Source of the DNA: Candidatus Lustribacter sp.
GTDB lineage: Bacteria; Vulcanimicrobiota; Vulcanimicrobiia; Vulcanimicrobiales; Vulcanimicrobiaceae
DNA: 64,000 nt
Direction: 5' to 3'
Assembly: GCA_965277805.1 (NCBI GenBank)
Contig: OZ255842.1
Location: 4,992,001 to 5,056,000, forward strand
Shown piece by piece: positions 44,479-46,269 of this stretch (position 1 is the first letter of the stretch; each line of letters begins with the position of its first letter). Both the position numbers and the translations under genes were made by a program. A model generated the notes under the pieces. It was not told the DNA's origin and made no database searches. It saw nothing but the letters and a program-made list of their open reading frames with translations.

Positions 44479-45191
44479 GTATTCTCGAATTGCGGCGGCA
44501 GCGCATAGGTCGGTCCGGGCCGCACTTCCGGCGTTACGGGGATCGTCTTCTTCGTTTCGGTGTAGGCCAGCAGATCGTACACGTTCGCAAAACCGCCGAC
44601 GCGCTCGAGGTGCTTGATCGTCGGAAAGATCATCTGCACTTCGTTGCGCTCGACCTCGCCCAAAATGTCGGCCGGGCGCACCCAGCGCCCGTGGTAGGTC
44701 TCCAACTCGTCGGCTTCGGCGATCTGATCCTTCGGAGCGCGCGCGATGAAGAAGCGCGCATCGAAGCGGTGCGGGTTGACCGTCGGCGTGATCCAGCGCG
44801 AGAAGTAACGCACCGCGCGCGCATCGAGCCGCACGCCGAGGTCGATCAGCGTGTCGCTGAACGAGCGATCGCCCTTCAGCATTTTCGTGCGCGCTGCGCG
44901 CAACGCGCTCTGCTCAACCGGCTCGACCGAGAACAGCAACCCGCACTCTTCGAACGTCTCGCGAATCGCCGCGTACGTGAATGCCGGCTCGGCCGGCCGC
45001 CACTGACCCACCATTCGCATTCTCGCTTGCGGTGAGTAGTCGGCTTTGTCGACGGTGCCGCCCGGGAAGACGTAGGCGTCGGGAAATCCGGGCGCGGTGG
45101 AACCGCGCCGCAAAAGGTAGACCTCGATTCCCGCGTCCGTGTCGCGGCAGACGACGACGGTTGATGCATCGCGCGGGGAAGGCACACTCAC
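44472..45191 (-). CDS. NUDIX hydrolase (NUDT19-like)
   Basis: PRDASTV, VFPGG.VD..D, AAIRETFEECG, WITP, RFDARFF. Start uncertain. Confidence 0.85.
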   Translation of the reverse strand: MSVPSPRDASTVVVCRDTDAGIEVYLLRRGSTAPGFPDAYVFPGGTVDKADYSPQARMRMVGQWRPAEPAFTYAAIRETFEECGLLFSVEPVEQSALRAARTKMLKGDRSFSDTLIDLGVRLDARAVRYFSRWITPTVNPHRFDARFFIARAPKDQIAEADELETYHGRWVRPADILGEVERNEVQMIFPTIKHLERVGGFANVYDLLAYTETKKTIPVTPEVRPGPTYALPPQFENTW

Positions 45192-45207
45192 CCGACCCAC
45201 ATTCTGC

Positions 45208-45241
45208 AAAAAAAGAATGGACCCCGGTGGGAGCCCATTCT
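45208..45241 (-). terminator. Intrinsic terminator (minus strand)
   Basis: AGAAUGGGCUCC-cacc-GGGGUCCAUUCU followed by a U run on the minus strand. Confidence 0.8.
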
Positions 45242-45480
45242 CAAATCTTCTGGATTTGGTCGGTGCGCACTCGTAGCGTAGGCTACGAGTTCACGACCTT
45301 CGGTGGATCTTGCGGTTCCAAACTGGTACCGCCCTCCTTCCGCTGTCGATGAGTGTAGAGGCGTCGGACCTCACCAAAACGGCGAGCAAATCAGCCGTTT
45401 CGGTGCTCAGTACCCAGGTGGATCTTGCGACGTAGGCCGCCCTCCTTGGGTCGAATGTGCGGTGTGTGTACCTCGAGGTG
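45208..45480 (-). ncRNA. Candidate structured non-coding RNA or cis-regulatory leader (family not recognised)
   Basis: TACGAT -10 at 45491-45486, several hairpins, two copies of AAGGAGGGCGG-N-CGCAAGAUCCACC, and a terminator. Confidence 0.6.
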
Positions 45481-45585
45481 CACGCATCGTACACCCCCCG
45501 GGCGGGGGCCGCAATAGGGCAAAATCGCACCTACTTTTCCACCACATTATCCACCGGGCGGAAGCTTGATCGCGGAGGCCTCGGG

Positions 45586-46269
45586 GTGGCACCCGCAAAG
45601 AAGCCGTGGGTGAAGCCCGGTTTTGCGGTGCTGCTGCAGCGGCTTGAGGCGGCGCTCATTTTCGCCGTATCCTTCGCCATCGCGGCCTTCGTCGTCGCTA
45701 AAAAGCCCGAAGTCGAGCACCTCCTCGGCGTGCTGGGGTTCAGCCGTTTTCCGTTGGCGGTGCTGATCTTCGCGGTCGTGGCGTCGGCGCCGTTTTCCGT
45801 GACCGACGCGCTTGCCGTCATGAACGGCGTGATCTTCGGCCCGTGGCTCGGCTCGCTCGTCAACGCGGCCGGAATCGTCGTTGCGGCCATCATCGGCTAC
45901 GCCGTGGCGCTGCGCACCTCGAAGCTGCTCGACATCGAGGGCACCGTGCAGCGGCTGCCGGCCTGGGTGCGGCACTTCAAGATCGGCTCGCCGATGTTTC
46001 TGATCGTCGTGCGCATCATTCCGGGGCTCGGCGGAACGATCGCGACCCAAACGGCCGCGGCCCTGCGGGTGCCGCTCTGGCGTCAGATCTATACGATGTC
46101 CGCGATCGCGATCCCGATCTGCACGGCGCTGGCCCTCGGCGGCGACGCTCTCTCGAACTATATCGACGCCCGGTGGGAACAGGCGAGCGCCTACGCAGAA
46201 CGCCACCACGTGCACTTTCCGCATCGGCACCACGCCGTTCCGAGCCCGTCGCCGGCCGTCTCACCTTGA
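45586..46269 (+). CDS. VTT/TVP38 (DedA-superfamily) membrane protein
   Basis: NGVIFGPWLG...N..G...AA...Y and VRIIPG; GGAGG before GTG 45586. Confidence 0.75.
   Translation: MAPAKKPWVKPGFAVLLQRLEAALIFAVSFAIAAFVVAKKPEVEHLLGVLGFSRFPLAVLIFAVVASAPFSVTDALAVMNGVIFGPWLGSLVNAAGIVVAAIIGYAVALRTSKLLDIEGTVQRLPAWVRHFKIGSPMFLIVVRIIPGLGGTIATQTAAALRVPLWRQIYTMSAIAIPICTALALGGDALSNYIDARWEQASAYAERHHVHFPHRHHAVPSPSPAVSP

Follow-up and report, generated by a model that had tools for sequence, protein, structure and literature searches.

Here we describe an RNA element on the minus strand (45514-45208) of a 64,000-nt stretch of a Candidatus Lustribacter sp. genome (contig OZ255842.1, positions 4,992,001 to 5,056,000); this whole stretch is the window, and all coordinates refer to it. 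We find that the element is a real, selected structured RNA with a true duplicated module, because an exact duplicate that shuffling does not reproduce is combined with helices that covary across relatives, including those of the units found upstream of rimP (rimP-type units). The element is a separate gene that is near-universal in, and specific to, one family, called Baltobacteraceae (phylum Eremiobacterota) in record titles. The reading that we favour, tentatively and at somewhat less than even confidence, is that of a stand-alone, translated regulatory RNA: a small structured RNA of ≈260-270 nt with its own promoter and terminator that would also be a pair of mini-mRNAs, each self-masked in that the strand pairing with its Shine-Dalgarno (SD) sequence, the anti-SD strand, would consist of the Pro-Pro codons of its own mini open reading frame (mini-ORF). 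In the window's genus, the element would also head a NUDIX-MBL operon.

The element is a covarying RNA with a duplicated hairpin module

As an initial annotation made from the sequence had proposed, the minus strand of the window contains two exact copies of the motif GGAGGGCGG-N-CGCAAGATCCACC (45445-45417 and 45337-45302) and no others; it is matched in none of 100 shuffles and is absent from the rest of the 5.53-Mb genome. Module 1 (45447-45417) comprises the SD sequence AAGGAGG, an inner stem GCGGC/GUCGC, an internal loop, and UCC-ACC, the Pro-Pro codons, pairing with the SD; module 2 (45339-45302) has the same SD and UCC-ACC around a stem GCGGU/ACCGC that carries an extra apical stem. The predicted fold of module 1 (-17.4 kcal/mol, z = -1.7) is weaker than those of the other hairpins, which are module 2 (-17.7 kcal/mol, z = -3.1), a 12-bp hairpin between the modules (45405-45372; -20.3 kcal/mol, z = -4.2), an extended hairpin whose 5' arm carries the stop codon of mini-ORF 2 (45298-45258; -22.9 kcal/mol, z = -6.1) and an intrinsic terminator (45242-45208; -19.6 kcal/mol, z = -4.7). 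The terminator was called by a terminator scan as a 13-bp stem at 45242-45213 followed by a run of seven T that ends at 45208. Nearly all of the features listed in the initial annotation are found at these positions in the sequence, the scans and the folds; among its hairpins, the 12-bp and extended ones fold and covary, and a small one (45257-45243) is not conserved.

The pairing in these folds is conserved among relatives. The genuine variants among 70 folded sequences share one module fold, in which UCC is the pairing partner of the SD's GGA, the internal loop is 2-by-4, the inner stem is GCGGN/NCCGC and the loop carries the start codon. Over 51 variants, 98% of the cells pair, compared with at most 47% when the partners are slid, and pair 14-31 varies among GC (30), AU (14) and GU (5). 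For the tandem type, we scored the nine helices of the window in 19 units from several genera and find that 80.6% of the cells pair vs. 35.6-46.9% with slid partners, with 25 pairs that change on both sides vs. 11-14 when slid. Changes on both sides are found at 11 of the 13 pairs of the terminator stem, 5 of the 9 pairs of the inner helix of the extended hairpin (87.4% of cells pair) and 5 of the 12 pairs of the 12-bp hairpin, which forms in all 19 tandem units when folded singly. Every one of the stems particular to the rimP-type units covaries as well. A doubly compensated stem, GCAA/UUGC (L093, G254), is seen in unpublished genomes alone. The element is more conserved in nucleotides than the neighbouring proteins, and genera with RimP proteins of ≈60% identity share an identical 32-nt core.

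The minus strand, which the initial annotation had preferred, is favoured because G-U pairs are frequent within the conserved helices and because of the T run and the promoter; fold energy makes no choice between the strands, as the z-score of the whole region is equal on both (-4.98 and -4.96). The promoter consists of a -35-like hexamer, TTGCGG (45514-45509), 17 nt 5' of the -10 box TACGAT (45491-45486). The TTG is kept in 13 of 13 aligned tandem units, the TAnnAT in 13 of 13 aligned relatives, as is the full TTG-N17-TAnnAT pattern, and boxes equivalent to the -10, TACAAT or TAGAAT, precede the rimP-type units. A strict sigma-70 scan called no promoter here, and it is this conservation that sustains the -10 box of the initial annotation. 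The predicted transcript start coincides with a palindrome, ACCTCGAGGT (45479-45470), that folds weakly (-1.8 kcal/mol) and in which CCTCGAGG is invariant in tandem units; other unit types have at this position GTCTCGAGAC with variable loop lengths, or unrelated hairpins.

A competing protein-coding explanation finds no support. The ORF at 45291-45530 (79 codons), for which the initial annotation had named coding-type conservation as evidence against a structured RNA, has no Pfam match, and its frame is broken between close relatives by 1-nt indels or indels that are not multiples of three. Nor does the element belong to a recognised RNA family, in keeping with the earlier assessment: Rfam 15 gives no match to the whole window at gathering thresholds, and at E-values up to 10 the region 45000-45750 yields one chance-level match only. 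This is to flg-Rhizobiales in the NUDIX coding region (45049-45160, plus strand; 18.5 bits vs. a gathering threshold of 55, E = 0.24), and we take it as chance. A search of eight relatives' loci returns only two weak Leu_leader matches on a terminator of locus L012 (27.1 and 24.8 bits vs. 50). The genome has no match to the 6S RNA model of Rfam, a model that recovers just 5 of 14 control genomes; the multi-hairpin shape is unlike 6S.

Several familiar motifs were considered for the module and dropped upon inspection of the variants. These are a K-turn, as the non-bulged strand lacks the required sheared-pair letters; a CsrA-type sponge with GGA in the loop, found only in the rimP-type and some copy-2 modules; a T-box-like loop, absent from the loops of copy 1; and a mimic of the 3' end of 16S rRNA.

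Each module embeds a short frame that runs through Pro-Pro

The perfect SD that the initial annotation saw in each copy is present, while its statement that no start codon follows fails for copy 2, which has TTG, and for copy 1 of relatives. Every relative has TTG or ATG within the module's apical loop, 4-5 nt past GGAGG and in frame with CAA GAT CCA CCN GGN, to give a predicted M-[T/E]-[S/P]-Q-D-P-P-G, with copy 2 ending in -K instead; after Pro-Pro-Gly comes a stop or a short unconserved tail. The pattern described earlier as an inner stem that differs between the copies and still pairs, with unrelated loops on top, is explained instead by a mini-ORF that keeps its frame: the changing letters are its start codon and two variable codons.

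In relatives, mini-ORF 1 reads TTG/ATG/CTG-ACG-TCG-CAA-GAT-CCA-CCN-GGN, with a stop within 0-2 codons in the window's genus. In the window (45433-45407, minus strand), it reads ACG-TCG-CAA-GAT-CCA-CCT-GGG-TAC-TGA and has lost the canonical start: the window and L005 have only ACG at this position, via a 1-nt deletion, with CTG in L004 (99% identical) and TTG in the rest of the genus. Mini-ORF 2 (45321-45283, minus strand), TTG GAA CCG CAA GAT CCA CCG AAG GTC GTG AAC TCG TAG (MEPQDPPKVVNS), begins with the TTG at 45321-45319, 11 nt after GGAGG. The stop of mini-ORF 1 lies 1 nt 5' of the 12-bp hairpin and that of mini-ORF 2 inside the extended hairpin, so a pausing or terminating ribosome would have to melt those hairpins.

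We then find a bias for one frame in a comparison of 62 distinct module variants taken from family loci. In the Pro-Pro frame, 53 variants have a canonical start and the other 9 a near-cognate, none is without a start and there are no in-frame stops, compared to frame +1, with 3 canonical, 8 near-cognate, 51 without a start and stops in 26, and frame +2, with 0 canonical, 13 near-cognate and 49 without. The codons observed are TTG (39), ATG (7), GTG (7), ACG (4), ATC (3), ATT (1) and CTG (1), and weak and near-cognate starts are thus tolerated yet a start is always present; the ATT-ATC variant (L094, G262) is known from unpublished genomes alone. The spacing from SD to start ranges from 4 to 14 nt, and the frame from start to Pro-Pro nevertheless survives separate indels: genus g14 has six codons inserted, genus g25 is one codon shorter and G195 carries a +3 insertion. 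A stem pair of L010 has gone from G-C to A-U by compensatory change, and the codon concerned went from CAA to TTA, avoiding the stop TAA.

The stop of the second frame is also kept: 17 of 24 tandem units have exactly four very variable codons from Lys to the stop of ORF2. The exceptions are L008, in which TAG reads CAG and a TAA follows four codons on; L009, in which a deletion leads to Ala and then a stop; and five g14 units with six extra in-frame codons and a stop two codons past Pro-Pro, one of whose five distinct sequences (L084, G236) is from an unpublished genome. From these patterns, we conclude that selection probably acts on the recognition of the start codon and on keeping the frame open through Pro-Pro, and probably not on the peptide as a product.

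The element is near-universal in one family

The homologue search proposed in the initial annotation shows that the element is conserved well beyond the window. Counts from the related-genome DNA search, the pattern scans and the R1 search described here include up to 14 unpublished genomes, and the alignment A2 and the covariance model R1 take in unpublished L014, L021, L084 and L094; no conclusion depends on observations found in unpublished genomes alone. Among 61 related genomes, the DNA search recovers the region in full from each of the 7 other genomes of the genus; 12 further genera of the family have just the 30-40-nt module. A degenerate pattern matches 224 of 348 family genomes and 59 of 78 genera, with no match to the reversed-pattern control, and of 22 rimP upstream regions from pattern-negative genomes, 9 carry the unit in changed form (QNPPG, EDPPG, QTPPG or another SD) and 13 are without it. 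The model R1, built from 51 module variants, finds the element in 143 of 151 family genomes that are at least 90% complete, representing 53 of 55 genera, and in none of 56 genomes from 16 other families of the phylum.

Matches of the degenerate pattern in 15 of 104 out-of-family genomes were set aside, as the reversed-pattern control matched there too and the five that were printed lack the hairpin. We also scanned one genome per species of all prokaryotes and considered only the matches listed. Among these, the hairpin-bearing ones belong to records whose titles name Candidatus Eremiobacteraeota, Vulcanimicrobiota, Baltobacteraceae, Velthaea, Lustribacter or Tumulicola, and three further records under other titles carry a genuine module; the listed matches in other phyla lie in coding sequence without the hairpin and are chance. 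The three records (L117, L139, L153) are public and titled Rhodospirillales, Alphaproteobacteria or simply "bacterium".

Most genomes have one locus, and a few have two; two R1 matches in the same genome are usually a tandem pair 110-125 nt apart, and most relatives have a single module. The window genome is assembled as a single 5.53-Mb contig with ratings of 95% for completeness and 5.9% for contamination, and genomes of its genus are unusually large (3.4-5.8 Mb) for a family with mostly 2-4 Mb.

Three unit forms lie beside unrelated genes

The element is a separate gene, because it is mostly found at one locus with its own terminator, a separate promoter serves rimP where rimP follows, some units end against what reads as a convergent gene, and the neighbours vary. 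They include rimP-nusA, NUDIX-MBL, amt, TetR and tRNAs, such that the initial annotation's test of whether homologues always precede NUDIX/MBL genes has a negative outcome. In 51 motif instances examined, rimP-nusA follows in 35, NUDIX in 8 and neither in 8. An SD and a short ORF with a start codon in the 5' RNA and, in the window, an intrinsic terminator just ahead of the next gene are present, as in leader-peptide attenuators; the constant association with one operon expected of such leaders is absent, as the downstream genes differ. The element instead has the hallmarks of a stand-alone small RNA (sRNA), namely a conserved promoter, a covarying terminator, independence of neighbours and presence in RNA libraries, and the initial annotation's alternative of a stand-alone sRNA fits best.

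The rimP-type unit has a single module (MEPQDPPG..) and lies 225-350 nt upstream of rimP-nusA. It begins with a promoter and a 5' hairpin, after which stand the module, a further four hairpins and a terminator that is GC-rich and has U4-5; beyond it come a second promoter and a hairpin, AAGCGUGGGCAGGUCCCGCGCUU, with a U-rich tail directly before rimP. The second promoter and this hairpin are all that remains in the 13 of 22 rimP upstream regions without the unit. The unit is therefore separate from the rimP leader, as it ends in its own terminator ahead of a second promoter and the hairpin persists without it. The AAGCGUGGGCAGGUCCCGCGCUU hairpin is itself almost invariant before rimP family-wide (L013-L053, L060-L081), with or without the unit, and has a conserved -10 box ≈25 nt upstream. 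The window genome's own rimP (L054) has no unit, no leader and no rimP-leader hairpin, unlike most of the family, and starts ≈20 nt after the stop of the preceding gene.

The tandem type is represented by 24 distinct units from several genera. A NUDIX gene lies 3' of the unit and is co-oriented with it, the distance being +175 to +350 nt for the window's genus and g14 and +656 to +1415 nt for three other genera; L082, L083 and L086 have ≈970-1390 nt between unit and NUDIX. In L083 and L086, the sequence past the unit terminator reads as the end of a similar convergent gene, such that the terminator would serve both directions, and L012 has a bidirectional-looking terminator followed by an opposite-strand ORF. 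G005, of the window's own genus, has a VTT/DedA gene downstream instead of NUDIX. In the window, the NUDIX hydrolase gene (45191-44472, minus strand; Pfam NUDIX) has a conserved GTG start at 45191, set by aligning relatives of the genus, and the gap from the T run to this GTG is 16 nt, so the U-tailed terminator just before the NUDIX start is as first described. The MBL-fold gene (44478-43546, minus strand; Pfam Lactamase_B and BLACT_WH) follows 3' of NUDIX, and a VTT/DedA-like gene is the divergent neighbour of the element.

A third form has the stem GCGA/UCGC. An amt gene (ammonium transporter) follows in 6 loci, a TetR gene in 2 loci by Pfam with two more alike by eye only, and weak AurF-like matches below the Pfam cut-off are found in 2 loci; the TetR genes start ≈40 nt past the unit terminator. 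In a single case (L098, 350-724), a third-form unit has a tRNA-Pro(UGG)-tRNA-Arg-tRNA-His cluster within ≈170 nt, and this tRNA-Pro(UGG) would read the CCA codon of the mini-ORF.

Element sequence is present in RNA libraries

Seventeen sequencing runs recorded as RNA contain 15-26% of the sampled words of 45100-45600. Contigs of four metatranscriptomes from four studies (permafrost, rhizosphere, soil and peat) were compared with 44900-45800, and 3, 34, 42 and 6 of them fall within 45257-45466, with a summed word depth on the element of up to 5277; in run X4, 25 of 42 contigs on the element are at least 99% alike. The initial annotation had proposed looking for a minus-strand transcript of ≈270 nt, and these contigs show that the sequence is present in RNA libraries; contigs give neither strand nor true ends. 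The four runs have no contig on 44900-45240, which takes in the terminator and the NUDIX side, and none on 45489-45800, apart from one X1 contig of depth 5 on 45475-45626; the uncovered part is not evidence for an RNA end at that place or for a silent NUDIX gene. An Illumina adapter abuts the contig ends at 45461 and 45462 (X2), 45465 (X1) and 45466 (X4), all 4-9 nt downstream of the palindrome. This hints that the RNA begins just past the palindrome, with a 5' end 13-18 nt 3' of the start that the -10 box predicts. One X1 contig runs past 45257 with unlike letters, including a run of 13 A (RNA strand); an A-tailed decay intermediate, the divergent 3' part of a relative and a chimera are all possible origins of this tail.

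Discussion

In the mechanism that we propose, the SD is paired with ..U-CCN-CC.. and a weak start codon (mostly UUG; also AUG, GUG, CUG, AUU, AUC and ACG) is presented in the apical loop, such that the masking strand would be read as Pro-Pro codons 6-7 of an ORF starting in the same hairpin. Breathing of the hairpin would allow a ribosome to load, and after four or five codons this ribosome would reach D/N-P-P-G or D/N-P-P-K and slow down; such contexts are known for slow peptide-bond formation that depends on elongation factor P (EF-P). The dwell at Pro-Pro, with termination at stops against or inside the next hairpins, may then set the fold and fate of the RNA. The output would be the amount, conformation and lifetime of a short RNA, with a second output in the window's genus, transcription through the terminator into NUDIX-MBL 16 nt downstream. 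Candidate signals are EF-P activity, the supply of Pro-, Gly- or Lys-tRNA, initiation capacity and temperature; EF-P and tmRNA are both encoded elsewhere in the window genome. A more speculative version, to which we give a small chance, is a housekeeping "test mRNA", in which almost all Baltobacteraceae genomes would keep one abundant RNA with no coding content other than one or two self-masked mini-ORFs that end in an EF-P-dependent Pro-Pro stall, and in which ribosome occupancy of that RNA would gauge initiation at weak starts and Pro-Pro bond formation, with the reading passed in trans via the 3' hairpin domain and in cis to the operon behind.

A number of observations weigh against the translated, self-masked RNA that we favour. 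That ribosomes load and pause, and that this affects RNA fate or read-through, is deduced from sequence patterns; the 62 variants are related, so the frame counts are not phylogenetically independent, and a fixed geometry of loop, stem and bulge could be enough to keep the frame. CCNCC is the expected look of a C-rich anti-SD strand, so Pro-Pro could be a by-product. CAA and GAU are fixed despite a high-G+C genome, with GAC found once among the matches listed, and the residue before Pro-Pro varies (D/N/T) while its paired U never changes; because these supposedly synonymous sites are held constant, selection at the RNA level is indicated. Copy 1 in the window and L005 keeps its hairpin intact with only ACG in the start position, and peptide tails past Pro-Pro-Gly are not conserved. 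The contigs show neither strand, true ends nor level, and DNA can occur in RNA libraries. NUDIX lies 185-1415 nt away in other genera, in some apparently with a convergent gene between. Finally, we see by eye in the alignments no antiterminator and no conserved complementarity of the arms of the hairpins near the ORFs with those of the terminator, a result obtained with no dedicated computation of alternative folds, and regulated read-through is the weakest link in the mechanism because no antiterminator was found.

Some of these same points would suit an untranslated structured sRNA, an alternative that we regard as possible if doubtful. Here the hairpins with SD and start would be decoys or docking sites for the 30S subunit, an initiation factor or an RNA-binding protein and the mini-ORFs incidental, and the hairpins would protect the 5' end, as a parked-ribosome or STAB-SD stabiliser, or titrate a partner. 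A constraint on nucleotides greater than that on the peptide is just what this predicts, as seen in the fixed CAA/GAU, the invariant U that pairs with the A of GGAGG and the 98% pairing, and copy 1 of the window folds without a canonical start; a single locus with its own promoter and terminator fits an sRNA gene, as do RNA-library contigs at high word depth. An SD-only decoy nonetheless leaves unexplained that all 62 variants have in-frame starts or near-cognates and none a stop, vs. 26 with stops in frame +1, as well as the frame kept across indels, the conserved ORF2 stop and the TTA in place of TAA in L010. A decoy for 30S subunits that needs start recognition without elongation would explain the starts, not the stops.

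It is unlikely that the element is purely a cis-acting leader-peptide attenuator of NUDIX-MBL, in which translation of the two leader ORFs decides termination at 45242-45208. The 16 nt from terminator to NUDIX start leave no room for a promoter, NUDIX is preceded by a co-oriented tandem unit at 15 of the 71 loci examined (genera g1, g14, g63, g75 and g77), and TetR follows closely on the terminator in other lineages. Such a leader is hard to square with one element per genome next to unrelated neighbours in different genera, a separate promoter after the element at rimP, the gap of ≈970-1390 nt in L082, L083 and L086 with an apparent convergent gene end in L083 and L086, VTT/DedA downstream in G005, or the missing antiterminator. 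A still smaller probability attaches to functional small-peptide genes (MxxQDPPG..) with RNA structure only for their expression: the SD, the start and the conserved N-terminal octapeptide pattern would be accounted for, and the tails of variable length and sequence (ORFs of 8-22 codons), the changes at residues 2-5 (T/E/S/N; S/P/L/T; Q/E/L/T; D/N/T) with the paired bases kept, the fixed rare codons, and the ≈200 nt, most of the conserved RNA, that lie outside the ORFs would not. Slightest of all is the chance of a tandem-aptamer riboswitch for a metabolite such as CoA or a nucleotide derivative, as the initial annotation had suggested for the NUDIX and MBL genes from two similar bulged stem-loops in tandem upstream of hydrolase genes with a terminator at the end. 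The association with those genes is not conserved, and single modules are the rule among relatives. The conserved letters spell an SD, a start codon and Pro-Pro codons and show a frame bias, and the module is only a ≈31-38-nt hairpin with a 2-by-4 internal loop and no further covarying pocket.

The single parts of the element are of known kinds: a proline-codon leader ORF, an SD/anti-SD hairpin and an attenuator-derived sRNA. EF-P-sensitive leaders with proline codons are reportedly the subject of Elgamal et al. in mBio, 2016 (PMC5021804). The proline leaders of the Salmonella mgtL/mgtP type likewise have a short 5' ORF with an SD and start, a slow step at proline and a terminator before the next gene. 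The present element differs in that no antiterminator is found, the Pro-Pro codons are the anti-SD of their own start, and there is one element per genome beside unrelated genes, with a separate promoter following at rimP. The cryIIIA STAB-SD and the stalled ribosome on the ermC leader offer a strong SD near the 5' end and a short ORF that holds a ribosome; here, the SD is masked by its own ORF and there are two modules. ROSE and fourU thermometers mask an SD in an imperfect hairpin with a conserved internal loop or mismatch opposite, and unlike the 8-12-codon ORF inside an sRNA described here, they control a full-length downstream gene.

Two published elements bear further comparison. The rnTrpL RNA of Sinorhizobium meliloti is an attenuator-derived, dual-function sRNA that encodes the leader peptide peTrpL (PMC7968998). 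Like the element as we read it, rnTrpL is reportedly a short terminated transcript with a translated leader ORF that accumulates as an sRNA and can precede a gene; it shows no likeness in sequence or structure and has Trp rather than Pro-Pro codons. The rimP-leader is a GGGc..gCCC hairpin with a U stretch before rimP in Firmicutes and Gammaproteobacteria (Naville and Gautheret 2010, PMC2965389); the section of that article on the rimP-leader describes no leader ORF and no larger conserved element. The relatives' unit is likewise upstream of rimP-nusA, and a GGGc..gCCC-like hairpin stands directly before rimP there too, as an element distinct from and downstream of the unit; the window element is not beside rimP. 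The AAGCGUGGGCAGGUCCCGCGCUU hairpin fits the rimP-leader pattern and would extend that motif to Eremiobacterota.

As far as we can tell, the combination is new: an anti-SD that is at the same time a Pro-Pro stall strand, near-cognate starts, one locus with unrelated neighbours, and a family-wide distribution. We know of no described element whose SD-masking strand is the Pro-Pro codons of its own mini-ORF, and our literature searches found no comparable element and no regulatory RNA described for Eremiobacterota. Peat, permafrost and polar soils are rich in members of this phylum (WPS-2), almost none of which are in culture. One cultured relative is named in the abstract of PMC10582173. Nearly all genomes of the phylum's largest family carry the element, which by those searches is the first candidate regulatory RNA there, and R1 is a specific marker of Baltobacteraceae that could help re-examine the labels of the three otherwise-titled records. 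If ribosome pausing is real, the RNA would be a compact natural sensor of EF-P or translation status, and the test-mRNA version, if true, would make it the founding case of a new class of riboregulators that sense ribosomes and stall them at the anti-SD itself.

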